Shown here: positions 3,757-55,449 of the stretch, piece by piece
How the letters are laid out: every line of letters starts with the position of its first letter
How positions within the stretch are numbered: the stretch's first letter is position 1
Assembly: GCA_963770895.1 (NCBI GenBank)
Contig: CAVYRF010000002.1
Span: forward strand, 372,354-436,353
Direction of reading: 5' to 3'
Length of the DNA stretch: 64,000 bases
DNA from: an uncultured Acidobacteriota bacterium
GTDB lineage: Bacteria; Acidobacteriota; Thermoanaerobaculia; Multivoradales; UBA5704
The notes under the pieces: generated by a model
Databases searched by the model: none
Told to the model about the DNA's origin: nothing
Seen by the model: the letters and a program-made list of their open reading frames with translations, nothing else
Translations under genes and position numbers: made by a program

Positions 3757-5566
3757 GGTTGAGGGTCGCGTCGTGGTTGCCTCCCGGCTTGCCTGCGTCG
3801 TCGTCTCGCTCTTCCCGCTGGCGGCCCGTCTGCGCAGCGAACCCGAGCTGACGCGGGAGGCGCTGGTCATCGTCGAAGGCAACGGCGGCGGCGCCGGCGT
3901 GGTCGCCGCTTCCCGTTTGGCGCGCCGCGCCGGCGTGCGGCCCGGCCTCAGCCTGACCCAGGCGCGGGCGCTCATCCCCAAGCTGGTGGCGCGGCCGCGC
4001 GACGTGGAATGCGAGCGCGCGGCCCAGGAAGCTCTGCTGGAAGCCGCCGACCGCTTCTCGCCGCGCGTCGAGGATGCCGGCGGCGGCATCGCCTACCTCG
4101 ACATCGACGGCATCGACCGCCGCTTCCGCCGCACCATCGCCGCCGCGTTGACCGCGTCCGCCGCGTCGACCGCGTCGGCGGCGCCGGCGGCGGCCGCCGA
4201 GCTGGAGCTGGGGCGCGCGCTGCTCGCCGCCACGGCGGCGGCAAGCCTGCCGGCCAAGGCCGGGATCGCCTCCAGCAAGCTGGCCGCCATGGTGGCCGCC
4301 GGCCTGGCGGACTCTCCCGGCATCGTCGCGGCGGGCCAGGAGGCGGCTTTTCTGGCGCCGCTGCCGCTCGATTGCCTGCTGCCCAGCCTGGAGCTGGTCC
4401 CCCTGCGCGGGTCCGCCGCCACCGGCCCCGAGGCCCCCGGCGGCGCCGGCATCCTGCAGATCGCGGCGACCCTGGAGCGCTGGGGGATTCGCACCATCGG
4501 CGATTTTGCCGGCCTGCCCGCGGCGCGCGTGAGCAGTCGCCTGGGGAGCCTCGGCCGTGCGCTGCATGCCACGGCCCGCGGCATCGATTCCCGTCCCCTG
4601 GTGCCCCGCCAGCCGCCGCCCGCCTTTCATGAAGGCATGGACCTGGAATGGCCGCTGGTGACGCTGGAGCCCTTTCTGTTCGTCGGCCGGCCGGCGCTCG
4701 AGCGGCTGTGCGGGCGCCTGGAGGGGCACGGACTCGCCTGTTCGCGGCTGGAGCTGGCGCTGCGCCTGGACCCGGAAGGGCACCAGCTGCGCACCATCGA
4801 CCTGCCCGCCCCGACCCGCGACGTCAAGACGCTCCTGACGCTGCTCCGCCTGGAGCTGGAAGCGCATCCGCCGGGGGCCCCGGTGGCCGGCTTCACCCTC
4901 GCCGCCCGCCCGGACCGCCCCCGCGAGGCCCAGCTGTCCCTGTACGGCCCGGCGGCGCTCTCACCGGACAAGCTGGCCGCCACCCTGGCGCGGCTGTTCG
5001 CCCTGTTGGGGCCGGACCGCATCGGCTCGCCGCGGCCGGTCGCGGGGCACCGCCCCGAGCGGCTGGCGCTGGTCGCCTACGCTCCCCCGCCGCCGCCCGA
5101 GGTGCGGCGCGACCCCAGGCGCACCACCGGCCGCGGCCTGCTGTCGATCCGGGTGGTGCGGCCGGCGCTCGCCATCGAAGTGATCGTGGAGGAGCCGCAG
5201 CAGCTCGGGGCGCCCGCACCCCAGCCGGCGCGACAACCCCAGCCGCTGCCGGCGGACGCGGCCGTGCCCGCACCCGAAGACGCGGCGGCGCCCGCGCCCG
5301 CGGCCGCGGACATGGGCACCGGCGAGCCCTGCATGCTGCCGCCCGTCGAGATCCTGCCCGTGGTCAGCGAGGACACCGCGGGGCGGCCGCGGATTGCCGG
5401 ACGGGTGAAGGTGGCCGCCGGCCCCTGGGGGCTGGAAGACGAATGGTGGACTCCCAACCCGACAGGCCGCGACTATTGGGACGTCGAGCTGGCCACAGGC
5501 GGCCTGTATCGCATCTTCCGCGACCGGGCCTCCAGCTGCTGGTACGCCGACGGGATCTACGACTGA
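3740..5566 (+). CDS. imuB: ImuB-like Y-family DNA-polymerase paralog (UmuC-fold, non-catalytic)
   Basis: The N-terminus LACVVVSLFPLAARLRSEPELTREALVIVEGNGGGAGVVAASRLARRAGVRPGLSLTQARALIPKLVARPRDVECERAAQEALLEAADRFSPRVEDAGGGIAYLDIDG is typical of ImuB. The gene overlaps the imuA 3' end. Confidence 0.7.
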   Translation: MLAGVEVEGRVVVASRLACVVVSLFPLAARLRSEPELTREALVIVEGNGGGAGVVAASRLARRAGVRPGLSLTQARALIPKLVARPRDVECERAAQEALLEAADRFSPRVEDAGGGIAYLDIDGIDRRFRRTIAAALTASAASTASAAPAAAAELELGRALLAATAAASLPAKAGIASSKLAAMVAAGLADSPGIVAAGQEAAFLAPLPLDCLLPSLELVPLRGSAATGPEAPGGAGILQIAATLERWGIRTIGDFAGLPAARVSSRLGSLGRALHATARGIDSRPLVPRQPPPAFHEGMDLEWPLVTLEPFLFVGRPALERLCGRLEGHGLACSRLELALRLDPEGHQLRTIDLPAPTRDVKTLLTLLRLELEAHPPGAPVAGFTLAARPDRPREAQLSLYGPAALSPDKLAATLARLFALLGPDRIGSPRPVAGHRPERLALVAYAPPPPPEVRRDPRRTTGRGLLSIRVVRPALAIEVIVEEPQQLGAPAPQPARQPQPLPADAAVPAPEDAAAPAPAAADMGTGEPCMLPPVEILPVVSEDTAGRPRIAGRVKVAAGPWGLEDEWWTPNPTGRDYWDVELATGGLYRIFRDRASSCWYADGIYD

Positions 5567-9816: not shown

Positions 9817-11625
9817 CTATTTGCGGCGGTTGGCGGCCAGGGTGCGCTTGCGCAGGCGCACCGCCTCGGGGGTCACCTCGACCAGCTCGTCCTCGCGGAT
9901 GAACTCCAGCGCCTGCTCGAGGTTCATCAGCCGCGGCGGGATCAGGCGGATCATGTCGTCGGAGCCCGAGGCGCGCATGTTGGAGAGCTTCTTTTCCTTG
10001 GTGACGTTGACGTCCAGGTCGTTGCCGCGGGCGTGCTCGCCGATCACCATGCCCTCGTACACCTCGTCGCCCGGCGACAGGAAGAGCACGCCGCGCGGCT
10101 GCAGGTTCTCGATCGAATAGGCGGTGGCGCGCCCCTGGCGGTCGGCGACCAGGGCGCCGGTGGCGCGATGCTCGATGTCGCCCTGCCACGGCTCCCAGCC
10201 GTCGAACAGGTGGTTCATGATGCCGGTGCCGCGAGTTTCGGTCAGGAACTCGGCGCGGAAACCGATCAGGCCGCGGGACGGGACGCGAAACTCGATGCGC
10301 ACGCGGCCCGATCCGTGATTGCTCATCTTCATCATGCGGCCGCGGCGAGCGCCCATCTTCTGCGTCACCACGCCGATGAACTCTTCGGGACAATCGATCA
10401 CCAGCATCTCCATCGGCTCGTGCAGGCGCCCGTCCACCGTGCGGGTGATCGCCTGCGGCTTGCCGACCGACAGCTCGAAACCTTCCCGCCGCATCATTTC
10501 GATCAGGATCGCCAGCTGCAGCTCGCCGCGCCCCGAGACGCGGAAGGCGTCCGCCGTCTCGGTCATGTCGACGCGGATCGAAACGTTGATCAGGCGCTCG
10601 CGCTCCAGCCGTTCCTTCAGTTTGCGCGAGGTGACGTGCTTGCCCTCGCGGCCCGAAAACGGCGAGTCGTTGATCGACAGCACCATGGTGATGGTCGGCT
10701 CGTCCACCTGGATCGGCGGCAGCGGCCGGGGATTGTCGCGCTCCGACAGGGTTTCGCCGATCTCCATCTCCTCCAGGCCCGCCACCGCCACGATGTCGCC
10801 GGGACCGGCCTCGCTCACTTCGACGCGGCGCAGGCCGTCGTAGCCGTACAGCACGCTCACCTTGGCCGGCGCCGCCTGACCGTCGAGCCGGCAGAGCGCA
10901 ATCTCCTGCGCCTTGCGCAGGCGGCCGTTGAAAATGCGGCCGATGGCCAGCCGCCCCACGTAGTCGTCGTAGTCGAGGGTCGTCACCAGCATCTGCAGCG
11001 GCATGGCGGGATCGTAGGACGGCGCCGGCACCGTGCGCAGGATCTCTTCGAACAGCGGCGCCAGCGTTTCGTCCTCGCCCTGCGGCGTACGCCGGCAGGT
11101 GCCGGCGCGGGCGTTGCAATACAGCACGGGGAAATCGAGCTGCTCCTCGCCGGCTTCCAGGTCGATGAACAGATCGAAGACCTCGTTGAGCACCTCGGCG
11201 GGACGGGCGTCGGAGCGGTCGATCTTGTTGATCACGACGATCGGCGGCAGGTGCGCTTCGAGCGCCTTCTTGAGGACGAAGCGGGTCTGCGGCAGCGGCC
11301 CTTCCGACGCGTCCACCAGCAGCAGGACGCCATCCACCATCTTGAGCGTGCGCTCCACCTCGCCGCCGAAATCGGCGTGGCCCGGCGTGTCGACGATGTT
11401 GATGCGGGTGCCGTGATAGAGGATGGCGGTGTTCTTCGCCATGATCGTGATGCCCTTTTCGCGCTCCAGATCGATCGAATCCATCACCCGCTCCGCCACC
11501 GTCTGGTGCTCGCGGAAAATGCCGCTCTGCCACAACATGGCGTCCACCAAGGTGGTCTTTCCGTGATCGACGTGGGCGATGATCGCCAGGTTGCGTACGT
11601 CGTCGCGTCTCTCGATCCTCTGCAT
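9817..11625 (-). CDS. typA: translational GTPase TypA/BipA
   Basis: [20 protein letters not shown] (G1), [14 protein letters not shown] (G3), NKIDR (G4). The 602-aa length fits the BipA domain layout. Confidence 0.9.
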
Positions 11626-11739
11626 CAGGGCATGACCTCGTCAGGCATATGAATGGGTGCGTGCGGACCGGCGGGAAACCGTGCGGCCCCAGGGGGACGG
11701 GGAGGATACCACAGGGGCTGGTGGCGATAGGATCGCCGG

Positions 11740-13254
11740 ATGCGTGGCGCCGCCGCCTTCCTGCTCCTTCTTGCCCTGGCCGGCAGCGGGCCGGCGCCCG
11801 CGGCGCCACCGGCATCCCCGGCGGCGCCCGCGCCTGCCGCCGGTGCGGCACCCGCCGGGCCGGCGCCGCCGCAGGCCGGCGACGAACCGCTGGTGCGCGG
11901 GCAGCTGATCCAGACGGTGCACGCCGCCGGTCAGCCCGGCGAAACCTACGCGCTGTACCTGCCGGCCGCCTACAGCGCCGACCGGGCCTGGCCGATCGTC
12001 TACCTGCTCGACCCGCGCGGGCGGGGCGACCGCGCGGCGCGGCTGTTCCAGGCCGGCGCCGAGCGCTTCGGCTACTGCCTGGCCAGCTCCTACAACTCGC
12101 TGAGCGACGGGCCGCTGGCGCCGACCGTCGCGGCGATGCAGGCGATGTGGAACGACACCCACCGGCGCCTGCGCCTGGACGACCGCCGCCTCTACGCCGC
12201 CGGGTTTTCCGGCACCGTCCGCGCCGCGGTCCTGCTCGGGCTGCGCGCGCCGGGCACCTTCGCGGCCATCATCGGCGCCGCCGCCGGCTGGCCCGAAGGG
12301 CAGCCGCCGACGCGGGACACGGCGCTGCCGTTTTTCGGCACCGTCGGCAATCACGACTTCAACTACGACGAGATGATGCTGCTGGAGGAGCGCCTGGACG
12401 CGCTCGGCTCGCCGCACCACTTCGAGGTCTTCGACGGCACCCATCAATGGATGCCGGCCGAGCTGGCGACCGCCGCCCTGGCCTGGGTGACGCTCGGCGC
12501 CCTGCGCGCCGGCAGCCACCCCGCCGACCCGGCGCTGGTCGCCGCGCTGTTCGCGCCGCGCCTGGCCGCGGCGCGCGCCCTTGACGGCGGGCACCTCGAC
12601 CAGGCGGCACGCGCCTGGCGCCAGCTGGCGGACGACTTTCAGGGTCTGCTCCCCGCCGCCGACATGGACCCGGTGGCGCACCGCGCCGCCGAGCTGGCGG
12701 CGATGCCCGCCGTCGTCGCCGCGGCCAGGCGGCGCGCCGAACGCGTGCGCGGCGAGCAGCTCGCCACCGCGGCGGCGCTCCATACCCTGGCGGCGGCCCT
12801 GGACGACGCGCCCAGCGAGGCGACGTCGCTGCCGCGCCTGCTCGCCGATCTGCACCTGGGCGAGCTGCAGGCGCGGGCTCGCTCGAAGACCGATCCCGAC
12901 GACAGCCTGGCGGCGCAGCGGCAGCTCAACTCCCTGCTGGTGCAGACGTCGTTCTACCTGCCGCGCCAATATGCCGCGCACCAGCAGGACGACCGCGCCC
13001 TGCTGGCGCTCGCGGTCGCCGCCGAGATCGACCCGCACGACGCCGACACCTGGTACCAGAGCGCGGCAGCCAACGCCCGCCTGGGGCGCCGCCGCCAGGC
13101 GCTCAAGATGCTGGAGCGGGCGGCGGACGCCGGCTTCGGCGACGCCGACCGGCTGGCCAACGACGCCGACTTTGCACCGCTGCGGGGCGATGCCGACTTT
13201 GCGCGCCAGCTGGCCCGCGTGCGCGCGGCGGCGGCGGCGCACGGCCCCGCCTGA
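11740..13254 (+). CDS. secreted esterase / alpha-beta hydrolase (PHB-depolymerase-type esterase family) with a C-terminal helical TPR-like region
   Basis: A signal peptide MRGAAAFLLLLALAGSG is followed by YALYLPAAYSADRAWPIVYLLDPRGRG...RRLYAAGFSGTV (nucleophile elbow GFSG). The C-terminal half is Ala/Leu-rich and helical. Confidence 0.55.
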   Translation: MRGAAAFLLLLALAGSGPAPAAPPASPAAPAPAAGAAPAGPAPPQAGDEPLVRGQLIQTVHAAGQPGETYALYLPAAYSADRAWPIVYLLDPRGRGDRAARLFQAGAERFGYCLASSYNSLSDGPLAPTVAAMQAMWNDTHRRLRLDDRRLYAAGFSGTVRAAVLLGLRAPGTFAAIIGAAAGWPEGQPPTRDTALPFFGTVGNHDFNYDEMMLLEERLDALGSPHHFEVFDGTHQWMPAELATAALAWVTLGALRAGSHPADPALVAALFAPRLAAARALDGGHLDQAARAWRQLADDFQGLLPAADMDPVAHRAAELAAMPAVVAAARRRAERVRGEQLATAAALHTLAAALDDAPSEATSLPRLLADLHLGELQARARSKTDPDDSLAAQRQLNSLLVQTSFYLPRQYAAHQQDDRALLALAVAAEIDPHDADTWYQSAAANARLGRRRQALKMLERAADAGFGDADRLANDADFAPLRGDADFARQLARVRAAAAAHGPA

Positions 13255-13356
13255 GAGTCCTCTGGTCGTCCGCGCGCCTGGCGCGGCTCGCGGTCCGGCC
13301 GCGGGGCCGCGGAGCCGCGCATGGATCTTGCTTCCAGCGGGAGGGCTCGTTCGCCC

Positions 13357-14844
13357 ATGACAACGCGAAACATCATCTGCTGCCTGCTCCTGTGCGCCGC
13401 CGCCGGCCTGGCGACGGCGCCTGCCCAGGCCGAGGAAACCCTGTCCTACGGCCGTTTTGGCGTGGTGACCCTGTACCACGACACACCCCACCCGCGGCAC
13501 GTGGTGCTGTTCTTTTCCGGCGACGGCGGCTGGAACCTGGGCGTGGTCGATATGGCACGTACCCTGGCGAAAATGGACGCCCTGGTCGTCGGCATCAACC
13601 TGCCGCGCTACCTGAAGGCCTTCGACGCGGCGGGCGGCAGCTGCTCCTACCCCGCCAGCGACGTCGAGCTGCTCAGCAAGTACGTCCAGAAAAAGCTCGG
13701 CTTCCCCACCTATACCCCGCCGGTCCTGGTCGGCTACTCGTCGGGCGCCACCCTGGTCTACGCCCTGCTGGTGGAGGCGCCGCCCAACACCTTCGCGGGC
13801 GCGATCAGCATGGGCTTCTGCCCCGACCTGCCGCTCAAGAAGCCGATGTGCGCCGGCCACGGCCTCACCTGGGGCCCCGGCCCCAAGGGCAAGGGCGTCA
13901 GCTTCAAGCCCACCGCCACCCTGGAGCAGCCGTGGATCGCCTTCCAGGGGACGATCGACCAGGTCTGCTCGCCCCAGGACGTCGCGGCCTACGTGCGCCA
14001 GGTGAAAAACGGCGAAGCGGTGATGCTGCCCAAGGTCGGCCACGGCTTTTCGGTGACCGCCAACTGGGAGCCGCAGTTCAAGGCGGCGTTCCTCAAGCTG
14101 ACGGCGGCCGCTGCCACCCCGGCTGCGCCGCCCCCACCACCGGCCGCACCGGCGGCACCTCCCGCGGCCGCCGCGGGCGCCAGGCCGGGCCTGCCCGCGG
14201 CCGCGCCGCCGCCGGTGGGCGACCTGCCGCTGATCGAGATGCCCGCCAAGACGCCGGCCGGCAACATGCTGGCGATCATCGTCTCGGGTGACGGCGGCTG
14301 GGCCGGCATCGACCGCGAAGTGGGCACCGACCTGAGCGCCAAGGGCATACCGGTCGTGGGCCTCAACTCGCTGCAGTATTTCTGGAGCGCCAAAAACCCC
14401 GACGTCGCCGCCGCCGACCTGCAGCGCATCGCGCGCCACTACCTGGCGGTATGGGGCCGCGAGCAGCTGCTGCTGGTCGGCTACTCGCTCGGCGCCGACG
14501 TGCTGCCCTTCATGGTGGACCGGCTGCCGGCAGACCTGCAGAACCGCATCCGCCTGATCGCGCTGCTCGGGCCGAGCCTGCGCACCAGCTTCGAGTTCCA
14601 CGTCGGCGACTGGCTGGGCGCCGGCGACGGCGGCGACCTGCCGGTGCTGCCCGAAGTCGGCAAGCTGCGCGGCCGGCCGCTGCTCTGCCTCTACGGCCAG
14701 GACGAAACCGACAGCCTGTGCACCCGCATCGGCGCCCTGGGCAAGGCCGTCGCCTTCCAGGGCTCCCATCACTTCAACGGCGCCTATTCGTCGCTGGCCG
14801 AGCGCATCCTGCACGAAGCGCAAACCGCGGGCGGCGCCAAATGA
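13357..14844 (+). CDS. AcvB/VirJ family protein (N-terminal hydrolase-like domain plus C-terminal VirJ domain), with a signal peptide
   Basis: MTTRNIICCLLLCAAAGLATAPAQA is the signal peptide. It is followed by VVLFFSGDGGW..., then IIVSGDGGWAGIDREVG...VGYSLGADVLPF...GSHHF, the VirJ/AcvB signature. Confidence 0.7.
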   Translation: MTTRNIICCLLLCAAAGLATAPAQAEETLSYGRFGVVTLYHDTPHPRHVVLFFSGDGGWNLGVVDMARTLAKMDALVVGINLPRYLKAFDAAGGSCSYPASDVELLSKYVQKKLGFPTYTPPVLVGYSSGATLVYALLVEAPPNTFAGAISMGFCPDLPLKKPMCAGHGLTWGPGPKGKGVSFKPTATLEQPWIAFQGTIDQVCSPQDVAAYVRQVKNGEAVMLPKVGHGFSVTANWEPQFKAAFLKLTAAAATPAAPPPPPAAPAAPPAAAAGARPGLPAAAPPPVGDLPLIEMPAKTPAGNMLAIIVSGDGGWAGIDREVGTDLSAKGIPVVGLNSLQYFWSAKNPDVAAADLQRIARHYLAVWGREQLLLVGYSLGADVLPFMVDRLPADLQNRIRLIALLGPSLRTSFEFHVGDWLGAGDGGDLPVLPEVGKLRGRPLLCLYGQDETDSLCTRIGALGKAVAFQGSHHFNGAYSSLAERILHEAQTAGGAK

Positions 14845-43600: not shown

Positions 43601-46528
43601 TTAGTCGTCCAGGTCGTCGGGCAGTACTTCGGAAACCGCGGGCGGCGCCGCACTTGCGCCGGCGCTCTGCACCCGCTGGCGGCGCTCGACCGGCGGCCAG
43701 AGCGGTGAGGGCGGAAAGCCCGGACCGACGCCGGCCGGCGCCGCGTCGCCGGCGCTGGCGGGCGTCGATTTGCCCGAACCAGTGCCGGCGGGTGCCGTTG
43801 GCGACACGTCCACTATGTCCGCCGCCGGAACAGCCGCCGCCTGAACACCCGCCGCCTCCTGCCCGGCGGCCTGCTGCCTGGCCGCCTGTTGCCCGAAGCT
43901 GACCACGCGGTCCCACACCGCTCCCAGGTCGTCGCCAAAGATCACCAGGAGGTCGCCGGCGGCGGCGGCCTGTAATGCTTTTTCGACCGCCTCCTTCTCG
44001 CGATAAACGTCCGGGGCGATGTGGTCGGCGGGGAAGCCGGCGGCGATCAGGCCGCTGCGGAGCAGCTCGCCGACCTCGCCGGGGCGGCGGCCGCGCAGGT
44101 GGTCGTCTTCGCGCAGCAGGATCAGGTCGAAGGCGGGGGCGGCGGCGGCGGCCAGCTGGGCGATGTCTTCGTCGCGGCGGTCGCCGGGGGCGGCGATGAC
44201 GCCGATGCGCTGGCCGTGGACGGTGAGGCTGCGGATCATGCGCGCCATGGCGGCCATGCCGTGGGCGTTGTGGGCGTAGTCGAGCAGGACGCGGAAGGGG
44301 AGCTCGTGGTAGAAGTTGAGGCGGCCGGGGGTTTGGAAGAAGTCCGCGGTGAAGGTGCGCAGGCCCTGGCGGATGTTTTCGACGTCGATGCCCAGGCCGT
44401 GGGCGATGGCGGCGGCGAACATGGCGTTCTGCACGTTGTGCAGGGCCAGGCCTTCCACGGTCGCGGGGATCTGTCGCGCCAGCAGCAGCGGCACCTGCTC
44501 GCCGTGCTGATAGAGCACCAGCATGCGGCCCGACAGGCCCTGCACCAGCGATACCGCGGCGCCGCGGTCGTTGCGGACGTGCGAGGCGACGCGCTCGTTG
44601 AGCGGGTCCATGGTGACGTAGATGGGCTTGGCCGGGCTGTGGCTTGCCATGCGCACGACGCGGGGGTCGTCGGCGTTGAGCACGCAATAGTCGCGCGCCA
44701 CTTCCACGATGACCTGCTTGACGCGGGCGAGGTCGTCCAGGTTTTCGATGCCGCCCAGGCCCAGGTGATCGGAGGCGACGTTGAGCACCGCGCCGACGCC
44801 GCATTTGCGCCAGCCGAGGCCGGAGCGGACGATACCGCCGCGGGCGGTTTCGAGCACGGCCGCGTCGACGGTCGGATCGCGCAGGACCAGGTGACTGGCC
44901 CACGGCCCGGTCATGTCGCCTTTCACGGTCAGGACGCCATCGATGTAAACGCCGTCGCTGGTCGCCATGCCCACGGTGTGGCCGGACAGCTTGAGGATGT
45001 GGCCGACCATGCGGGTGGTGGTGGTCTTGCCGTTGGTGCCGGTGATGGCGGCGATCGGGATGCGGTAGGGAGTGCCGTGCGGAAAGAGCATGTCCAGCAC
45101 CGGTCCCGCGACGTCGCGCGGGGTGCCCTCGGTGGGCGCCGTGTGCATGCGGAAGCCCGGCGCCGCGTTGACTTCGACGACCGCGCCGCCGACCTCTTTA
45201 TGGCTGCGCGAAATGTCGGGCGAGATGAAATCGACGCCGCCCACGTCCAGGCCGATGGCGCGCACGCCGCGCTCCGCCATGATGCGGTTGTCGTAATGGA
45301 TCACGTCGGTCTTGTCGATCGAGGTGCCGCCGGTGCTCAGGTTGCCGGTCGAGCGCAGATAGAACAGCTGGCCCGCGGGCAGCACCGATTCGGGATCCAG
45401 GCCGGCCTCCTTGCACAAGCGCAGCGCCTGCTCGTCCAGCTCCAGGCGGGTCAGCACCTTTTCATGGCCGACGCCGCGCCGCGGGTCCTGGTTGACCAGC
45501 TCGACCAGCTGGGCGATCGTGTGCCGGCCGTCGCCGACGACGTGGCCGGGCACGCGCTGGGCGACCGCCACCAGCTTGCCGTTTACAATCAGGATGCGGT
45601 AGTCGTTGCCCTGTTGAAAGGTTTCGACGATCACCGTCGACGAATAGTATTCAGCTTCGGCGAACGCCGTCCGCACCTGGTCGGCGGTGGTCAGACCGAT
45701 GGCGACGCCCTTGCCGTGATTGCCGTCCAGCGGCTTGATCACCACCGGGTAGCCCAGGCCCTCGGCCTCTTCCACCGCTTCTTCGGCGTCGTAGACCCGC
45801 ACCTGGCGCGGCACCGGCAGGCCGAGATCGGCCAAAATCTGATTGGTCAGGCGCTTGTCAGAAGCGATTTCCACCGCGGTGTGGCGGGTTTCGCTGGTGA
45901 TCGTCGCCTGGATGCGGCGCTGGAACTTGCCGTGTCCCAGCTGCACCAGCGACCGATCGTTCAAACGAATCCAGGGGATGTCGCGGTCGTCGGCGGCGCG
46001 CACCAGCGCCCCGGTCGAGGGGCCGAAGGCACGCCGCTGCGCCAGGCGCACCAGCGATTCGCACTCGGCGCGAAAATCGAACGGCGACGAGTCGTGGTCC
46101 GCCCGCTCGACGGGCAGCAGGTGGCGGAGGACTGCCAGCGCCAGCTCGCCCGCGGCGCGGCCCACCGCCTCTTCGGCGTAGCTGTACACCACGTGGTACT
46201 GCCCGGTCGGCAGCCCCTCGCTCCGCGTCTTGCCGTAGCTGACCGGCGTGCCGGCAAGACATTGCAGCTCGATCGCCACGTGCTCCAGCACGTGGCCCAG
46301 CCAGGTGCCCTCTTCTTCGCGCAGCCGCCGCACGAAGCCGCCGGGCTCGCCGTACGAGCAGCCGTGCTCCTCAAGGCTCGGGATGAGCGCCAGCAGGCGT
46401 TCGTTGAAGCCGGGGAGCTTCATCGTCGGATACGCCTCCAGCTCCCCCAGGTCGACGCGCAACCGGATCACCGGCGCCAGGGCGTACAGGTTCGGCCCGC
46501 GATAGACCCTGGATTCCAGGATTTTCAT
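43601..46528 (-). CDS. cphA: cyanophycin synthetase CphA (N domain, ATP-grasp G domain, Mur-ligase M domain), with a ~90-aa low-complexity C-terminal tail
   Basis: The N-terminus is MKILESRVYRGPNLYALAPVI. ATP-grasp blocks are present. The M domain carries AITGTNGKTTTTRM. The gene is 975 aa. Confidence 0.85.
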   Translation of the reverse strand: MKILESRVYRGPNLYALAPVIRLRVDLGELEAYPTMKLPGFNERLLALIPSLEEHGCSYGEPGGFVRRLREEEGTWLGHVLEHVAIELQCLAGTPVSYGKTRSEGLPTGQYHVVYSYAEEAVGRAAGELALAVLRHLLPVERADHDSSPFDFRAECESLVRLAQRRAFGPSTGALVRAADDRDIPWIRLNDRSLVQLGHGKFQRRIQATITSETRHTAVEIASDKRLTNQILADLGLPVPRQVRVYDAEEAVEEAEGLGYPVVIKPLDGNHGKGVAIGLTTADQVRTAFAEAEYYSSTVIVETFQQGNDYRILIVNGKLVAVAQRVPGHVVGDGRHTIAQLVELVNQDPRRGVGHEKVLTRLELDEQALRLCKEAGLDPESVLPAGQLFYLRSTGNLSTGGTSIDKTDVIHYDNRIMAERGVRAIGLDVGGVDFISPDISRSHKEVGGAVVEVNAAPGFRMHTAPTEGTPRDVAGPVLDMLFPHGTPYRIPIAAITGTNGKTTTTRMVGHILKLSGHTVGMATSDGVYIDGVLTVKGDMTGPWASHLVLRDPTVDAAVLETARGGIVRSGLGWRKCGVGAVLNVASDHLGLGGIENLDDLARVKQVIVEVARDYCVLNADDPRVVRMASHSPAKPIYVTMDPLNERVASHVRNDRGAAVSLVQGLSGRMLVLYQHGEQVPLLLARQIPATVEGLALHNVQNAMFAAAIAHGLGIDVENIRQGLRTFTADFFQTPGRLNFYHELPFRVLLDYAHNAHGMAAMARMIRSLTVHGQRIGVIAAPGDRRDEDIAQLAAAAAPAFDLILLREDDHLRGRRPGEVGELLRSGLIAAGFPADHIAPDVYREKEAVEKALQAAAAGDLLVIFGDDLGAVWDRVVSFGQQAARQQAAGQEAAGVQAAAVPAADIVDVSPTAPAGTGSGKSTPASAGDAAPAGVGPGFPPSPLWPPVERRQRVQSAGASAAPPAVSEVLPDDLDD

Positions 46529-47565
46529 CGTCCGTTCATCTCCTCGGCCGTCGCGTCGTCCTCACCTTCGCCTTCACGTTCGCCGCCCTCGCCGCTCTCG
46601 CCGCCGTCACCGCGTTCGCCGCCACCCCCGCCGGCCCCGCCCCCGGCACCGCCGACCCCACCGGCACCGGCACCGGCCACACCACCGATCGCCGACCCGC
46701 TGGCCAGCCCTGCCGCCGGCGCGCTGCCGGGCAGCACGACCGGCGGATGCCCGGTGCGCTCCGCGAGGTCGTAGCTGCACCCGGCGGTCAGCACGTCGAG
46801 CTTGACACCGAGCATCGCCAGCGGCCGCCCGCGGCTGACCGCGTAGCTGTCCGTGTAGCGCATGCCGCGCGCGTCGACCACCGTCACCGCCCCCACCCCC
46901 AGCACCTGCAGCACGCCCGAGCCGTCGAGCACCGCGGCGGTGTCTTCGTCGACGCCGACGCCCAGCAGCCCAGGATGGTAGGACAGCGCGGTCAGCAGCC
47001 GGCCGAGCCGGTCGCGCCGCCGGAAGTGCTGATCGATGACCAGCTCGGGAGCCAGCCCCAGGCCCGGCGCCAGGTGCACCAGGCGGCGGCGCGGCGTGGC
47101 GCCGCTGTCGCCGATGGCGATCATGTGCTGCGACAGGTAGGCGGCGCCGGCGCTGGTGCCGGCCACCACCATCCCGGCGGCATGGCGGGCGCGGATCGTC
47201 GCCTCGACCGGCGTGCCGCCCAAGGCAGACGACAGCCGCAACTGGCTGCCGCCGGTGATGAACAGCCCGGTCGCGTACTCCAGCAGCTCGACCGCCACGT
47301 CGCCCGCGCCCAGCGCCTCCTCGCGCGTCGAGATGTGCAGCACCTCGACGCTGTCGGCGTTCAGGCCATAGAAGAGGTCGGTGTAGCGCTCGCCCGTCGT
47401 CTGCACTTCGGAGGCGGTGGCGAGCACCACCACCGAGGCGTCCGCCCCGCCCGCCGCCTGCAGGAAATAGCGCAGGATGGTACGCTCGCGCACCTTGTCC
47501 TCGGCGCCACCGATCGCGATCAGAGTCCCCGCCTTCGCCGGGGCCTGCGCCGCCAGGTTGTCCAT
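46525..47565 (-). CDS. cphB: cyanophycinase CphB (peptidase S51), with a Gly/Glu-rich C-terminal tail
   Basis: LIAIGGAEDK...VVAGTSAGAAYLS carries the Ser nucleophile. The gene overlaps cphA in ATGA. The tracker ORF 46525..47934 is 5'-extended, and ATG 47565 is chosen. Confidence 0.8.
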   Translation of the reverse strand: MDNLAAQAPAKAGTLIAIGGAEDKVRERTILRYFLQAAGGADASVVVLATASEVQTTGERYTDLFYGLNADSVEVLHISTREEALGAGDVAVELLEYATGLFITGGSQLRLSSALGGTPVEATIRARHAAGMVVAGTSAGAAYLSQHMIAIGDSGATPRRRLVHLAPGLGLAPELVIDQHFRRRDRLGRLLTALSYHPGLLGVGVDEDTAAVLDGSGVLQVLGVGAVTVVDARGMRYTDSYAVSRGRPLAMLGVKLDVLTAGCSYDLAERTGHPPVVLPGSAPAAGLASGSAIGGVAGAGAGGVGGAGGGAGGGGGERGDGGESGEGGEREGEGEDDATAEEMNGR

Positions 47566-47728
47566 GGTGGATGTCCCGCCTAGTCTTCGACCTGGCGCCC
47601 TTGCGGGTCCGGCTGCGCAGTCCCTTTCGCCCACCGTCCGTCCGTGCCGTTTGCCATGAGCGCGGATGCTAGCACGCGGGCGACGCCGGTCCGGCCTGCG
47701 GCCGGCCAAGCCCAAGGAGGCTGACCGC

Positions 47729-49531
47729 ATGCTGCTCGCGGACTCTCGGCGTCTCACCGGCCGCAACCTCCTGCTGCGCGAGCCGGGAGCGGTCATCGAA
47801 GTCGTGGCGGAGCCCGCCGAAGCCCACGCCCTGGCGGCGGCAACGGCGGAGTGGCAGCGGCAGGCACGCCGCATGCTGGACGCGGTGGGCTGGCGCGGCC
47901 AGCAGATCCACGTGCGCCCGTTCCGCGGTGGCATCAGCCTGGCGCTGAGCGCGCCGATCGACGCCCTCTACACCGCGACCGAGCTCAACGAATGGGCCTG
48001 GGAGGCCGCCGTCCTCGCCACCGGCGGCGCCGCCGCCGCAACCGCCGCGGCGCACGGCGCGGCCCCTGACGCGCGCGGAGCCGGCCCCACCAGCGCCGCC
48101 GTGGCGTCGGATCGCGCCGCCTTCGCCGCCGCCGCCGACCGGCTGCGCGCCGCCATCGCCCGCGAAAGCGACCCGGCGCTGCTCGACCTGCGCGACGCCG
48201 CGGCGCGCCACGGCGTCGCGTTCCTGGCCGACGACGACCGCGCCACCGTCGGCCTGGGCGCCGGCTCGCGCACCTGGCCGCGCGACCAGCTGCCGCCGCC
48301 GGCCGCCGTCGAGTGGCGGGCGGTGCACGACATCCCGGTGGCCCTGGTCACCGGCACCAACGGCAAGACCACCACCACGCGCGCCACCGCCGCCATCCTG
48401 GCCGCGGCCGGCCACCGCGTCGGCGTCACCTCCACCGACGGGATCGCGGTCGGCGGCGACACCCTGGACGTCGGCGACTACTCCGGCCCCGGCGGCGCCC
48501 GCACCCTGCTGCGCGACACCCGCGTCCAAGCCGCGGTCCTGGAAACCGCGCGCGGCGGCCTGCTGCGCCGCGGCCTGGCCCTCGAGCGCGCCACCGCCGC
48601 CGCGGTCACCAACATCGCCGACGACCACCTGGGCGCCTACGGCATCGACGACCTGGCCGGCCTGGCAGAGGCCAAGCTCCTGGTCACCCAGGCCGTGGTC
48701 CCGGACGGCCGGGCGGTGCTCAACGCCGACGACCCCGAGCTGGCCGCGCGCGGCAGCCAGGGCCCGGCACCGGTCACCTGGTTCAGCCTCGACCCTCACC
48801 GCGCCGCGCAACGCGACCTCGCCGCGCACCGCGCCGCGGGCGGCGACGCGGTGTTCCTGGAAGGCGGCCAGCTCCTCCTGGCCCGCGGCGGCCAGCCCCC
48901 GCAGCTGGTGGCGCCGGCAACCGCCGTGCCCATCGCCTTCGGCGGCGCGGCGCGCCACAACGTCGCCAACGCCCTGGCCGCGATCGGCCTCGCCGCCGCC
49001 ATGGGCGCCCCCATCGCCGCCATGGCCCAAGGCCTGGCCTCCCTGCGCGGCGACGACGACACCGGCGGCGGCAATCCGGGACGCGGCCATCTGATCGAGA
49101 TCGACGGCTTTCACGCCCTCCTCGACTACGCCCACAACCCGCACGGCCTGGCCGCCCTGGTCGACTTTGCCGCCACCATCCCCGCCACCCGCCGCCTCAT
49201 CATCCTCGGTCAGGCCGGCGACCGCGACGACGAATCCCTCCGCCGCCTGGCCCAGACCGCCTGGACTCTGCACCCCGACCACGTCATCATCAAAGAGCTG
49301 ACCGCCATGCTCCGCGGCCGCCTTCCCGGCGAGGTTCCCGCCCTCCTCGAAACCGAGCTGCTGCGCCTGGGCGCCCGCCGCGAAACCCTCACCCACGCCG
49401 CCAACGAAGTCGAAGCCGTCCGCCAAGCCCTGGCCTGGGCCCGCCCCGGCGACCTCCTGCTCCTCCTCATCCACAAGCAGCGCGATGAAGCCCTCGCCAT
49501 CCTCAACGACCGCCGCCGCGGCTGGGCGTAG
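47729..49531 (+). CDS. CphA-like protein with an N domain and a Mur-ligase (M) domain but no ATP-grasp domain
   Basis: MLLADSRRLTGRNLLLREPGAVIEV and ...DRLRAAIARESDPALLDLRDAAARHGVAFLADDDRATV parallel the CphA N domain. The sequence then runs directly into VALVTGTNGKTTTTRATAA, ...DDHLGAYGIDDLAGLAEAK... and LLDYAHNPHG of the M domain. An RBS AAGGAGG lies 8 nt upstream. Confidence 0.65.
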   Translation: MLLADSRRLTGRNLLLREPGAVIEVVAEPAEAHALAAATAEWQRQARRMLDAVGWRGQQIHVRPFRGGISLALSAPIDALYTATELNEWAWEAAVLATGGAAAATAAAHGAAPDARGAGPTSAAVASDRAAFAAAADRLRAAIARESDPALLDLRDAAARHGVAFLADDDRATVGLGAGSRTWPRDQLPPPAAVEWRAVHDIPVALVTGTNGKTTTTRATAAILAAAGHRVGVTSTDGIAVGGDTLDVGDYSGPGGARTLLRDTRVQAAVLETARGGLLRRGLALERATAAAVTNIADDHLGAYGIDDLAGLAEAKLLVTQAVVPDGRAVLNADDPELAARGSQGPAPVTWFSLDPHRAAQRDLAAHRAAGGDAVFLEGGQLLLARGGQPPQLVAPATAVPIAFGGAARHNVANALAAIGLAAAMGAPIAAMAQGLASLRGDDDTGGGNPGRGHLIEIDGFHALLDYAHNPHGLAALVDFAATIPATRRLIILGQAGDRDDESLRRLAQTAWTLHPDHVIIKELTAMLRGRLPGEVPALLETELLRLGARRETLTHAANEVEAVRQALAWARPGDLLLLLIHKQRDEALAILNDRRRGWA

Positions 49532-49819
49532 GAATCCCGCCGGCCGCTCGCGCCTACGTCTCAGGACGTTGCCCCATCTCCGGCGCGGAGTGCATCCGCG
49601 CTTGGCTCCACTCCCCAACGCCAGCGCGAATCGGCGACGATTGCACACGCTGATTCGTACATCAGGCAAGAAACATCGTAGAATCGCGGATACCCGCGGC
49701 ACCTATCTGCGCTTTCGGGGGAAGGCAATGCCGGAAGTCACTTCTGGTCGGCCGAATTCCAGGCGCTTCCTGCTGCAGGTGGCGCGATTCAACTCGGCAA
49801 AAAGGAGTTGGCTGAAACC

Positions 49820-50620
49820 ATGAGACAAAGCGCTGTCGTCCTCATCACCGGCCTCTATCTCGTCGGCGCCGGCTCGGCTCGCCTCGGCGCCGCCGATCCT
49901 GGAATCACCAGCGCAAGCAAGGACGCCATCCTCAAGACCCTGGCGGCGGATCCGGACGTGGTATGGATCGACGCCGCGAAGACACAGCCGATGTTCATTC
50001 CTGAGCGTCTGCTCAACACCACGGTGCCATTGGATCAGTTGCCCATTGGGTCCTCAGAGTTGCGAGACATCCACGTCATGCTCAATCCTCCGGCAAAAGC
50101 CGGCGGCTCCGGCGCTCCGATCTGCCGCTGGATGTCAATGCTGGGAATCGGCCCTCTCAAGTACAGCGATACCCTCTCGATCGACGGCCACTTCGAAAAG
50201 AATGGCTTGCAGGTGATTGGCCGGGTGACGAATGTTGAAACCGGCTTGTTCTTCTGGCCGCAGAACGTCGCCTCGATGGTGCAAGTACAGGTCGAGGAGG
50301 TGGTGCGCGACGATTGGAAGCTCGCGCAAACTAGAACTGAGATGCGCTTTTACATTCTTGGCGGCTCGCTGAACATCGATGGATCGGTGATGTGCACCAG
50401 GAGCGCAGATCCGCCCTTCCATGCTATAGTGGGGCAGCGCCTATATATCTTTGGGTTACCTTTTCCGTCAGACCCCCGCCTGATCGACGGAGCCGTCCCT
50501 TTCGTTGTGTCAGGCGATCAGTTGCTTGATGTCGGCTACGACCAGGTACCCGCATTCAAGCCAATCACCCTGGAAGAAGCGCGGCAGCGCGCCCACAAGG
50601 CGGCTGCCAATGTTCACTAG
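49820..50620 (+). CDS. secreted hypothetical protein (~266 aa) in a lower-GC stretch
   Basis: An RBS AAGGAG lies upstream of ATG 49820. The signal-like N-terminus is MRQSAVVLITGLYLVGAGSARLGAA. No recognisable motif is present. Confidence 0.5.
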   Translation: MRQSAVVLITGLYLVGAGSARLGAADPGITSASKDAILKTLAADPDVVWIDAAKTQPMFIPERLLNTTVPLDQLPIGSSELRDIHVMLNPPAKAGGSGAPICRWMSMLGIGPLKYSDTLSIDGHFEKNGLQVIGRVTNVETGLFFWPQNVASMVQVQVEEVVRDDWKLAQTRTEMRFYILGGSLNIDGSVMCTRSADPPFHAIVGQRLYIFGLPFPSDPRLIDGAVPFVVSGDQLLDVGYDQVPAFKPITLEEARQRAHKAAANVH

Positions 50621-52917: not shown

Positions 52918-55449
52918 ATGGGAGAATCCCCGGCTCGGCCGGGGTTCTCCCGGCAACGGGAGCCCGCCTTGCCGGGTTGGAAGCTCATCCTGTACTGCCT
53001 GACGGCGCTCGGTTGCATGCAGAGCGCCGTTTGGCTGTTGGCGAGGGGGCTCCGCCTCAGGCTGGAGCGGCGCGCCGTGCTGCTCGGTCTGGCGCTGCCG
53101 CTGGCGATGCTGGCACCGTGGCTTCCCGGCGGCGAAGTCCTGGCGCCGACCGGCGTGCTCGACGGCGCCCTGCCGGGATTGCAGGCCGACGCCGCGCATC
53201 GCACCCACCTGGTGCTGAGCGACGCGATCCTGCAATTCGTGCCGTGGGAGCTCGAAGTTCGCCGCGCCTTCGGCAGCTTTCGCCTGCCGCTCTGGTCCGA
53301 CCGCCTCGACGGCGGCAGCTCGCCGTGGCTCAATCCGCAGGCCGCGGTGCTCTCGCCGATCGCGCTGCTGGCGCGGCCGGCGCCGATCGCCGGCTTCTTC
53401 CTCATCTGCCTGGCGCTCAAGATCCTTCTCAGCTGCGAGGGGACGTGGCTCCTGGCGCGGCGCCTGGGCAGGACGCGTTGGGCGAGCCTCCTGGCGGCGG
53501 CCAGCTTCGCCTTGGGCGGCGGGGTGATGTCCTGGGCGCTCTTCCCGCACAGCGCAACCGTGGCCTGGGTGCCCTGGCTCGCACTGGCGGCCATCGCTCT
53601 CACCCGCCACCCGTCGCGGCGCTCGATTGCCACCGGCGGCCTCATCGTGGCGGCGCTGCTGCTCTCCGGCCATCCCGAGACGGCGGCCGCGGGCGGCCTC
53701 TTCGCCGCGGTATGCGGCGTGGGGTTGCGGCGGCGCCGAACCGGTTGGACACGCAGCCTGTCCGCCGCCTCCGCCGCCGCGCTCCTCGGCCTGGGATTGG
53801 CGGCACCCCAAATCGTGCCCTTCGTCGAGGCACTGGCGGATTCGCAGCGGGCGCGCGACATGGCGGGAGCGCTCATACCGCCGCACGGCTTCCACCTGCT
53901 GCAACCCGCGAGCTGGTTCCTGCACGCGTGGTTTCCCTACTTGCGCGCGCCGATCAATCCACGCGCCTTTGGCCTGCCTTACGACGAGGCAACTTTTCGC
54001 GGGCCGCTCAACTGGGTGGATTCGTCGAGCGGCTACACCGGCCTGGTCGCCTTCGCCGGCGCCGCGGTCGCCCTGCTGGCGATTCGCGACCGCCGGGTGC
54101 GCCCGTTCCTCGGCTTCGCCGCGGTGGCGCTCCTCCTCACGGCGGGTTTTCTGCCGCTGGCGCACCTCCTCTTCCGCATCCCGCTCCTGCGCATCCCGGC
54201 CTGGTCACGGCTGGTGCCGGTGACCTGCCTCGCCCTCTCGGTCGCCGGCGCCTTCGGCTGCGATCTGCTGCTGCGCCCCGGCCGGCGCCGCCTGGGCGTG
54301 GCGCTGGCGCTTGGCGCCGCCGCCGCAATCAGCTTGAGCGCCGGCCCCGTGCCGCAGGTGTTCCTGCTTTGGGGCCTGGTGGCAGCGAGCGCGGCCATCG
54401 CCGCCAGCGCCAGCGCCGAAGCTCTCACCGCCAGCCCCAGCGCCAAAGCCGCCCTCGGACGCGCCGGCCGCGGCGGTGGCAGCCTGACCAATGCCACCGC
54501 GCGGCGGCGCTGGGGGGCGCTGCTCCTGCTGGCCGCGGTGGGGCTGGACCTGGTTCCCTGGTCCCGGCGTCTGTTGCCGCGCGGACAGCCGGACCTTTTC
54601 TTTCCGCCGAACCTGCTGACCGCGCGGCTGCAGCACCTTGCGCCGGCTGCAACGTGGCGCACCGTGGGCGCGGATCTCCTGGTCTATCCATCGCTCCTGC
54701 CGGCCTACGGACTCGCCGACATACGGCCCAACAACGTCATGGCGCCGGCGCCGCAGCTGCGCGTGCTCGCCGCCGCTTTCGGCTTCGACCCGACCGCGAC
54801 CAACTATTACGCGGCGTTCCCCCGTTTCGACCATCCCCTGCTGTCTTTCCTCAACGTGCGGTGCGTCGTGACCCGGCAGCAGCCGCAGGACCCGCGCGCC
54901 GCCCGCCTGGTGACGATTCCCGCGCCGAGGCTGCGGCCGTTCACGCTCCTGCTCAATCCGCGCGCGCTGCCGCGGTGGTTCCTGCCCACGGACGTGGACC
55001 TGGTCGAGCCCGCGGCCCTCGACGCCTGGATTGCCCGCATGTCGGATCCCGCCCGCGTCGCGGTGTTCCCGGCGGAGGCCCGCGGGCTACGCCTGGCGCC
55101 GCGCACCGGACCGCCAGCAGCGGCCCGGTTGCTTCGCTGCGGCTCGGGCCATCTGGAGCTCGAGGTGCCGGGCCAGGGCGAGCGCCTGCTGGCCACGTCG
55201 CTGCCGCTGCCGGCAGGGTGGTCCGCCACGGCGACCGACGGCCGGCGGTTGCGGCCGCTCACCATCGACGGCGCATTTCTCGGCATCGTCGTCCCCGCCG
55301 GCAGCTCGCGCCTCACCCTCGACTTTGCGCCGCCCGGTTTTGGCGTGGGACTCGCCGGATTTGCCGCCGCCGTGGCCGCGCTCCTGGCCATGGCCGCCGC
55401 GCCACGACCTCACCTTGACGCGCCGCGCCCTCTTACAGTGGATACCTGA
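52918..55449 (+). CDS. YfhO-like polytopic membrane protein (glycosyltransferase-C-like family)
   Basis: The protein has more than 12 hydrophobic segments and a large C-terminal soluble domain. It is ~840 aa. The start is ATG 52918 (alternatively TTG ~52969). Confidence 0.45.
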   Translation: MGESPARPGFSRQREPALPGWKLILYCLTALGCMQSAVWLLARGLRLRLERRAVLLGLALPLAMLAPWLPGGEVLAPTGVLDGALPGLQADAAHRTHLVLSDAILQFVPWELEVRRAFGSFRLPLWSDRLDGGSSPWLNPQAAVLSPIALLARPAPIAGFFLICLALKILLSCEGTWLLARRLGRTRWASLLAAASFALGGGVMSWALFPHSATVAWVPWLALAAIALTRHPSRRSIATGGLIVAALLLSGHPETAAAGGLFAAVCGVGLRRRRTGWTRSLSAASAAALLGLGLAAPQIVPFVEALADSQRARDMAGALIPPHGFHLLQPASWFLHAWFPYLRAPINPRAFGLPYDEATFRGPLNWVDSSSGYTGLVAFAGAAVALLAIRDRRVRPFLGFAAVALLLTAGFLPLAHLLFRIPLLRIPAWSRLVPVTCLALSVAGAFGCDLLLRPGRRRLGVALALGAAAAISLSAGPVPQVFLLWGLVAASAAIAASASAEALTASPSAKAALGRAGRGGGSLTNATARRRWGALLLLAAVGLDLVPWSRRLLPRGQPDLFFPPNLLTARLQHLAPAATWRTVGADLLVYPSLLPAYGLADIRPNNVMAPAPQLRVLAAAFGFDPTATNYYAAFPRFDHPLLSFLNVRCVVTRQQPQDPRAARLVTIPAPRLRPFTLLLNPRALPRWFLPTDVDLVEPAALDAWIARMSDPARVAVFPAEARGLRLAPRTGPPAAARLLRCGSGHLELEVPGQGERLLATSLPLPAGWSATATDGRRLRPLTIDGAFLGIVVPAGSSRLTLDFAPPGFGVGLAGFAAAVAALLAMAAAPRPHLDAPRPLTVDT

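Follow-up and report, generated by a model that had tools for sequence, protein, structure and literature searches.

What could a second, shorter relative of cyanophycin synthetase be doing beside a complete copy of that enzyme? The question is raised by a 64,000-nucleotide stretch of DNA, here called the window, from an uncultured bacterium of the Acidobacteriota (Thermoanaerobaculia; assembly GCA_963770895.1, contig CAVYRF010000002.1). One gene in it, at 47729-49531 on the plus strand with the stop codon included, encodes a protein of 600 amino acids, termed NM for N + M protein. It adjoins genes for cyanophycinase (cphB) and a full-length cyanophycin synthetase (cphA1). The biosynthesis of cyanophycin, a polymer that stores nitrogen, is currently described with two enzymes. 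CphA1, the known synthetase, consists of N, G and M domains with three active sites (PMC9262961, PMC9427784, PMC10273328). CphA2, a beta-Asp-Arg polymerase, has an N domain and a working G domain, whereas its M domain is truncated and inactive (PMC10273328). An earlier, sequence-only reading of the locus had proposed that NM is truncated in the opposite way to CphA2, and the published architecture bears this out (PMC10273328): CphA2 (7TA5) keeps the G domain, whereas NM keeps a complete M domain and has lost G. CphA2 is described as cyanobacterial; NM is found in Acidobacteriota, Gemmatimonadota, Rhodothermales and other phyla.

NM is most likely a trans-acting, ATP-dependent side-chain ligase of cyanophycin metabolism, for which a substrate, a product and a physiological role can be proposed by analogy. 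This is the simplest reading because the arrangement of N module and M core, the ATP site and the lid are kept and the backbone-extending domain is gone.

Domain structure of NM

Residues 200-600 form a complete Mur-ligase M domain of the CphA1 type, core and lid. Pfam Mur_ligase_M matches residues 207-422 with 84.5 bits (gathering threshold 24) and Mur_ligase_C residues 451-579 with 52.8 bits (gathering threshold 28.4); both models match all of 29 family members. The NCBIfam model of cyanophycin synthetase, TIGR02068, gives an E-value of 1.4e-103 over model positions 477-852 only, and the score of 347.6 bits lies below the cut-off of 850. BLASTP aligns NM 200-580 with residues 488-864 of the neighbouring CphA1 (38% identity, E 8e-51), and the closest Protein Data Bank (PDB) matches by sequence are CphA1 structures (2.5e-61). 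The architecture claimed in the sequence-only reading, N and M domains without the ATP-grasp domain, is supported: NM joins an N-like module to a CphA-type M domain that is complete, and the ATP-grasp core is gone.

The M core comprises amino acids 200-442 (48326-49054, plus strand), assigned from Pfam and the 38% identity to CphA1. It contains the P-loop, the Mg ligands, the Asp-His motif and the adenine-binding asparagines, with K213, T214, T234/T236, E272, D299, H300, K316, N411 and N414 conserved. The P-loop GTNGKTT (amino acids 209-215; 48353-48373, plus strand), the counterpart of residues 495-501 of TeCphA1 (PMC9427784), is invariant in the family. Also invariant is the catalytic pair D299 H300 (48623-48628, plus strand), which corresponds to D585/H586 of SuCphA1, where mutation inactivates the M domain (PMC9262961). 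The M lid, amino acids 448-600 (49070-49528, plus strand), was delimited from the Mur_ligase_C match and by motif comparison. It displays the motifs PGR (R452), DYAHNP (H469) and GDR (497-499) and a family-specific K-E-L-x-x-M-L-R-G-R (522-531).

In CphA1, ATP and Mg are contacted by Lys499 and Thr500 of the P-loop, Thr522 and Glu558, the adenine is sandwiched by Asn497 and residue 692, and Arg731 and His748 are contributed by the lid (PMC9427784, PMC9262961). The NM counterparts of the CphA1 functional residues, K213/T214, T234/T236, E272, N211, H410, R452, H469 and D299/H300, show little or no variation across alignments of 29, 113 and 11 members from several phyla. A joint alignment of NM proteins with 60 partner CphA1 proteins has 57 positions conserved identically in both groups. 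Because the functional residues of CphA1 are conserved family-wide, the M domain of NM looks catalytically competent.

The central and C-terminal domains of NM are folded like those of MurE and other Mur ligases (1E8C), with which NM also has a P-loop, Mg ligands and an Asp-His motif in common; the ATP-dependent acyl-phosphate mechanism would be shared as well. Unlike them, NM has no Mur-type N-terminal UDP-binding domain, and its context is cyanophycin rather than cell-wall synthesis. MurE models reach only 1e-27 to 1e-29 on NM. Scores stay far below the cut-offs for the MurE, MurF, MurC and MurD models TIGR01085 (97 against 257), TIGR01143 (66 against 289), TIGR01082 (47 against 335) and TIGR01087 (50 against 212), and likewise for the FolC, MurT and PgsB/CapB models TIGR01499 (42 against 163), NF045635 (20 against 800) and TIGR04012 (16 against 223). 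By its score, its G domain and its N-domain peptidase site NM falls outside CphA1, and it falls outside CphA2 as well; it can be classed only as a member of the Mur-ligase superfamily with a CphA-type M domain.

The 200 residues before the M domain fall into three parts. Amino acids 1-97 (47729-48019, plus strand) are assigned to a reduced CphA-like N module, predicted as strand-strand-helix-strand-strand-helix. Next comes an Ala/Gly-rich linker, amino acids 98-121 (48020-48091, plus strand), which is predicted to be disordered (predicted local distance difference test, pLDDT, 47-65) and varies in length among homologs. Amino acids 122-199 (48092-48325, plus strand), with two helices and three short strands, represent a putative remnant of the start of the CphA1 Gcore and display a motif conserved in the family, NPALLALRDAA..GV.FL.DD...VGLG.GS. 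The Gcore of TeCphA1 starts at residue 162 (PMC9427784), and ∼60 residues from the Gcore start are kept in NM. The earlier statement that the G domain is missing thus applies to the ATP-grasp core, not to this remnant; the ATP-grasp models of Pfam match neither NM nor any of the 29 family members.

Profile comparison with hhalign aligned NM 127-180 with CphA1 147-201 (P = 5.6e-4), precisely the segment that the sequence-only reading had matched. With broader profiles the alignment was colinear, NM 1-187 with CphA1 1-208 (P = 1.2e-3), and per-column confidence was highest on the first hairpin, where M-x-L-L-D-S-R-R-L-T-G-P-N-L of NM is set against M-K-I-L-E-x-x-V-Y-x-G-P-N-L of CphA1. Some 19 NM residues span ∼286 CphA1 residues. 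The ∼267 residues missing are the ATP-binding and lid parts of the ATP-grasp domain, in good agreement with the ∼260 first estimated.

A full-length AlphaFold2 model of NM has a pLDDT of 91.5 and a predicted template modelling score of 0.91. The top Foldseek matches in the PDB are the CphA1 structures 7lgj, 7wae and 7lg5 (E ∼3e-35, 909-917 alignment columns). The template modelling scores normalised by the query are 0.75-0.79 and the M domain alone is 0.67 of the query; therefore the N part of the model superposes too. In the predicted structure the N part packs on the M core just as its counterpart does in CphA1. The remaining Foldseek matches cover only ∼80 residues of a generic strand-helix fold. 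Among them are RNA polymerase alpha and inactive M16 peptidase domains, likewise named as relatives of the N domain in the CphA papers.

Compared with CphA1 (7LG5, 7WAC; TIGR02068 / PRK14016), NM thus has a homologous M core and lid (38-40% identity, all catalytic motifs), a similarly placed N-terminal strand-helix module and the first ∼60 residues of the Gcore. The differences are as clear. The N module of NM has ∼97 amino acids against ∼160 in CphA1 and one helix fewer, and it is without the Cx19HxxEH motif. That motif is the endo-cyanophycinase site of the CphA1 N domain and occurs in 83% of CphA1 proteins. It is present in none of 73 NM proteins, whereas C...HxxEH is found in all 61 partner CphA1 proteins. 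The N-terminal region of NM has 45 positions that are at least 90% conserved across phyla.

The NM family and its linkage to cyanophycin genes

A profile of the N-terminal 205 residues of NM was searched against 1.84 billion cluster representatives (50% identity). It detected 806 clusters at E ≤ 1e-3, 576 of them at E ≤ 1e-10. The best 150 matches are all of 645 amino acids or fewer, with full-length ones of 553-645, and among the matches listed the N module of NM occurs only in the N + M architecture. A first homolog search had returned more than 100 proteins of 545-640 amino acids that are 55-94% identical to NM. In a survey of one genome per species of the Genome Taxonomy Database (GTDB), relatives are encoded in at least 478 stretches. 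The hosts include Thermoanaerobaculia and other Acidobacteriota, Holophagales, Gemmatimonadota, Rhodothermales, Planctomycetota and Acidimicrobiia, and also Woeseiaceae and other Gammaproteobacteria, Kofleriaceae (Myxococcota), Brocadiaceae and Glassbacteria. No cultured host is present among the 80 loci listed, all from metagenome-assembled genomes (MAGs), or among the named entries of 240 protein matches. NM is therefore a member of a large and widespread family and not an accident of the window. The term paralog, used in the sequence-only reading, has to be widened accordingly, as the relation to CphA is that of an old family and not specific to this locus.

Mean M-domain identity is 54% between NM proteins and 36% between NM and partner CphA1. 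A neighbour-joining tree separates the two groups of M domains cleanly, with NM as a clade of its own, and pairs from the same locus are no more alike than pairs from different loci. For these two reasons the M-domain sequences indicate that the NM/CphA1 split is old, with no sign of recent conversion. Judged from its sequence conservation, the NM family is old and under selection.

Names given to these proteins in the databases are 'Mur ligase (family protein)', 'cyanophycin synthetase' and 'UDP-N-acetylmuramyl tripeptide synthase' only. A published survey of cyanophycin gene clusters covers cphA1, cphB/E/I, iadA and iaaA (PMC10206079). No description of an M-only CphA relative was found in the full-text literature searched, most subscription papers being outside its reach. 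Labels such as 'cyanophycin synthetase' or 'MurE-like' on NM genes mislead metabolic reconstruction from MAGs.

Genomic linkage was assessed by tblastn of the CphA1 domains, CphB and NM of the window against 81 non-redundant related loci. A locus was taken as informative when it extends at least 4 kb on both sides of the NM relative, which left 45. Within 10 kb of NM, a full cphA1 is present in 39 of these and cphB in 41. Three layouts are found. In the first, typical outside Thermoanaerobaculia, cphB, cphA1 and NM follow one another in the same direction. In the co-directional loci, informative or not (∼40), the distance from the cphA1 stop to the NM start is mostly -1 to 71 bp. The CphA1 and NM genes often adjoin as one operon. 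In the second, NM faces cphA1 and cphB in convergent orientation with gaps of -4 to a few hundred bp. The third is divergent, as in the window, and in some loci copies of cphB-cphA1 flank NM on both sides. The divergent orientation had been noted in the sequence-only reading and is correct, cphB and cphA1 both lying on the minus strand beyond a spacer of 163 bp.

Clustering of open reading frames (ORFs) across the loci detected one further conserved neighbour, a 390-amino-acid protein encoded upstream of cphB in 22 loci. It is the isoaspartyl dipeptidase IadA (TIGR01975, 385.6 bits against a cut-off of 331); in locus L060, for example, iadA lies at 3758-4927 on the plus strand, directly upstream of cphB. 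The unit in many lineages, among them Gemmatimonadota, Rhodothermales and Planctomycetota, is iadA-cphB-cphA1-NM. In many uncultured bacteria of soils and sediments NM is an integral part of the cyanophycin operon, and its family is large and phylogenetically broad.

Two candidates were set aside during these comparisons. A methyltransferase gene lies 3′ of NM in loci L001 and L003, yet it is not a conserved neighbour. A second 'N + M' protein in L003, which is matched by PF18921 (the Pfam model of the CphA N domain), is not an NM family member; it is a cphA1 whose G domain has an internal deletion and whose C-terminus is cut short.

This cphA1 derivative, at 10317-12029 on the minus strand of L003 (on the same contig as L065), reads through 570 amino acids. 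Similar genes are found at ∼12817-14559 of L015 and ∼11759-13528 of L049, both on the minus strand. The derivative has the PF18921 N domain; its G domain is cut down to the final ∼80 residues, and its M core stops before the lid. It occupies the usual place of the convergent full-length cphA1 and occurs in three different MAGs with 63-79% M-domain identity to the CphA1 of the window. An error of assembly is the less likely origin; the gene is probably a paralog that has decayed or been put to another use.

Possible functions of NM

By a modest balance of probability, and by analogy with CphA1, NM is held to be the free-standing, catalytically competent arginine-adding half of cyanophycin synthetase, working with the neighbouring CphA1 and CphB. 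The conserved operon context strengthens this proposed function. As in the CphA1 M domain, the Mur-ligase core would bind ATP and Mg. A cyanophycin chain or short primer would lie in the groove that the reduced N module forms with the M core, and NM would phosphorylate the free beta-carboxylate of an Asp at its C-terminal end. The M lid would present the amino acid, whose amine would attack the acyl-phosphate to form an isopeptide bond. Because it has no ATP-grasp domain, NM should be unable to extend the Asp backbone and would work in trans, on chains that CphA1 has made. Arginine or lysine is the most likely amino acid to be added, although a change in the region of the DNPR motif, described below, may point to another specificity. 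Possible roles beside CphA1 are the finishing or rescue of chains with an undecorated terminal Asp, the making of first primers and the addition of a different amino acid. If NM is active, the two half-reactions of cyanophycin synthesis are split into different proteins, which bears on the priming, finishing and chemical variation of chains, and NM would provide a stand-alone biotechnology tool for decorating poly-aspartate or cyanophycin.

Several observations weigh against this assignment. The M domain of the partner CphA1 is itself intact, and for this reason a second arginine-adding activity beside it looks redundant. A few loci (L009, L028 and L058) have no cphA1 within 10 kb of NM. The shared N domain, as claimed in the sequence-only reading, is only partly sustained. 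The hhalign alignment of NM 127-180 and the structure prediction speak for it, whereas PF18921 matches none of 29 NM members even at E ≤ 10, the module is reduced and the peptidase site is absent. In addition, BLASTP against the neighbouring CphA1 gives no match in the N-terminal 200 residues, and the N-terminal profile comparison by hhalign is weak (probability 19-30%). That reading had made the N-domain homology depend on support from alignments or hidden Markov models; at the sequence level half of this support fails to appear, and it is only the structure prediction that rescues the claim. Sequence thus suggests the homology weakly, and the case for it leans on the predicted structure and the short N-terminal motif.

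A further difficulty lies in the lid. The motif before the invariant R-G-R is [R/K]-E-D-[D/E/H]-x-x in CphA1 and K-E-[L/M]-x-x-[M/Y/H]-[L/R] in NM, one residue longer, so that the acidic E-D-D of CphA1 is replaced in NM by E-L/M-x-x. By comparison with E. coli MurE, this stretch presumably corresponds to the DNPR motif, with which MurE binds the amino acid to be added. The replacement speaks for another incoming substrate or another mode of binding, and is to be taken as a hint of altered recognition rather than a result. Thirteen fixed switches separate the M domains of NM and partner CphA1. One candidate specificity switch, E692 to G405, was dropped, as cyanobacterial SuCphA1 also has Gly-Gly at that site.

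It can tentatively be proposed that NM represents a third functional class of cyanophycin enzyme ('CphA3'), which does what CphA1 cannot do well: either the de novo start of chains, from beta-Asp-Arg or very short primers of its own making, or the addition of a non-arginine side chain. If chains are started by NM, this would answer how synthesis initiates in cells that hold no polymer. If non-arginine side chains are added, these soil and sediment bacteria would store a chemically different cyanophycin-like polymer.

The second of these options, taken on its own, appears rather unlikely. Here NM would be a side-chain ligase that attaches something other than arginine, for example lysine, ornithine, citrulline, glutamate or an amine, to a part of the aspartates, by which the solubility or degradability of the polymer would be tuned or chain ends capped. 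A function not redundant with CphA1 would account for the retention of NM next to a complete CphA1 in many phyla, and the class-specific E-D-D replacement and the 13 fixed switches are consistent with it. Against it, E523 and R-G-R are kept, and in its other active-site motifs NM does not differ from CphA1.

Doubtful, too, is a role as de novo primer or dipeptide synthetase. NM would then be the source of the first primers, whose synthesis by CphA1 is very slow; CphA1 would elongate them, and its N-domain peptidase would multiply them. The M-type chemistry of NM and its operonic position with cphA1 fit this scheme, and the altered residues near the substrate motif could suit a small acceptor. 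However, the primer-generating C...HxxEH site carried by every partner CphA1 examined makes help with priming less obviously needed, and the CphA1-like placement of the N module points to a polymer as ligand rather than a free amino acid.

It is highly improbable that NM is a non-catalytic partner, serving as a scaffold, a regulator or a granule protein bound to CphA1 or cyanophycin. The Gcore remnant and the N module do belong to the regions through which domains and subunits of CphA1 contact one another (PMC9427784), but the near-invariance of ATP-binding and catalytic residues across phyla is unexpected for a purely structural protein. Most improbable of all, in spite of the public names 'Mur ligase family protein' and 'UDP-N-acetylmuramyl tripeptide synthase', is an unrelated Mur-type ligase (peptidoglycan, folate, poly-gamma-glutamate or MurT-like) beside cphBA by chance, or a decaying cphA1 fragment: the MurE, MurF, FolC, MurT and PgsB scores are far under their cut-offs, the E-value with the CphA model is far stronger than with those of MurE, linkage to cphA1 and cphB recurs in several phyla, and strong conservation with uniform lengths (553-645 amino acids) speaks against decay. 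The sequence-only reading, which had left room for an unrelated MurE/FolC-type ligase, can be narrowed to this extent.

The gene and its surroundings in the window

As the window is G + C-rich (0.62-0.75), long ORFs are present on both strands. Over 47666-49531 only the plus-strand reading is protein-like, and the true start is the ATG at 47729. A Shine-Dalgarno-like AAGGAGG, read from the sequence, lies 8 bases before it (47714-47720, plus strand), and NM homologs all open with an equivalent of M-x-L-L-D-S-R-R-L-T-G, in support of this start. The divergent spacer between the cphB and NM starts, to which no strand is assigned, occupies 47566-47728. No consensus promoter of the sigma-70 type and no terminator was found in a scan of 47400-49900.

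cphB (46525-47565, minus strand) encodes a cyanophycinase of 346 amino acids, with 262.7 bits to TIGR02069 (cut-off 126.6) and a match to Pfam Peptidase_S51. cphA1 (43601-46528, minus strand) encodes a full-length synthetase of 975 amino acids with N, G and M domains and an HVLEH motif; it scores 1121 bits to TIGR02068 (cut-off 850) and is matched by PF18921, the ATP-grasp models, Mur_ligase_M and Mur_ligase_C. The cphA1 start and the cphB stop overlap by 4 bp. Both proteins end in low-complexity tails beyond the conserved domains, of ∼70 amino acids rich in Gly/Ala/Glu in CphB (46525-46740, minus strand) and of ∼110 amino acids rich in Ala/Pro/Gly/Gln in CphA1 (43601-43930, minus strand). Apart from NM, cphB and cphA1 no cyanophycin genes are found in the window, and iadA is not present there.

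The next gene 3′ of NM starts ∼290 bp on and encodes an unrelated secreted protein. The downstream genes of the window (secreted Big_7/metalloprotease-like; YfhO-like) were considered as partners and rejected, being unrelated and not conserved beside NM. G + C content drops from ∼0.74 to ∼0.65 across ∼24 kb (∼22000-46000) and rises again at the cphA1/cphB/NM region; the low-G + C stretch forms a compositional island with its right edge near the cyanophycin genes.

On a related Thermoanaerobaculia contig (L001), a DarT-Macro pair (DarTG-like) lies at 12653-14367 on the plus strand, ∼3 kb 3′ of the NM homolog and unrelated to it. In the window, an ORF of 449 amino acids at 55433-56782 (minus strand) displays an N-terminal SEC-C motif and a C-terminal antitoxin-type domain of the Xre/MbcA/ParS kind, and is adjoined by a YbjQ-domain ORF at 56790-57761 (minus strand).

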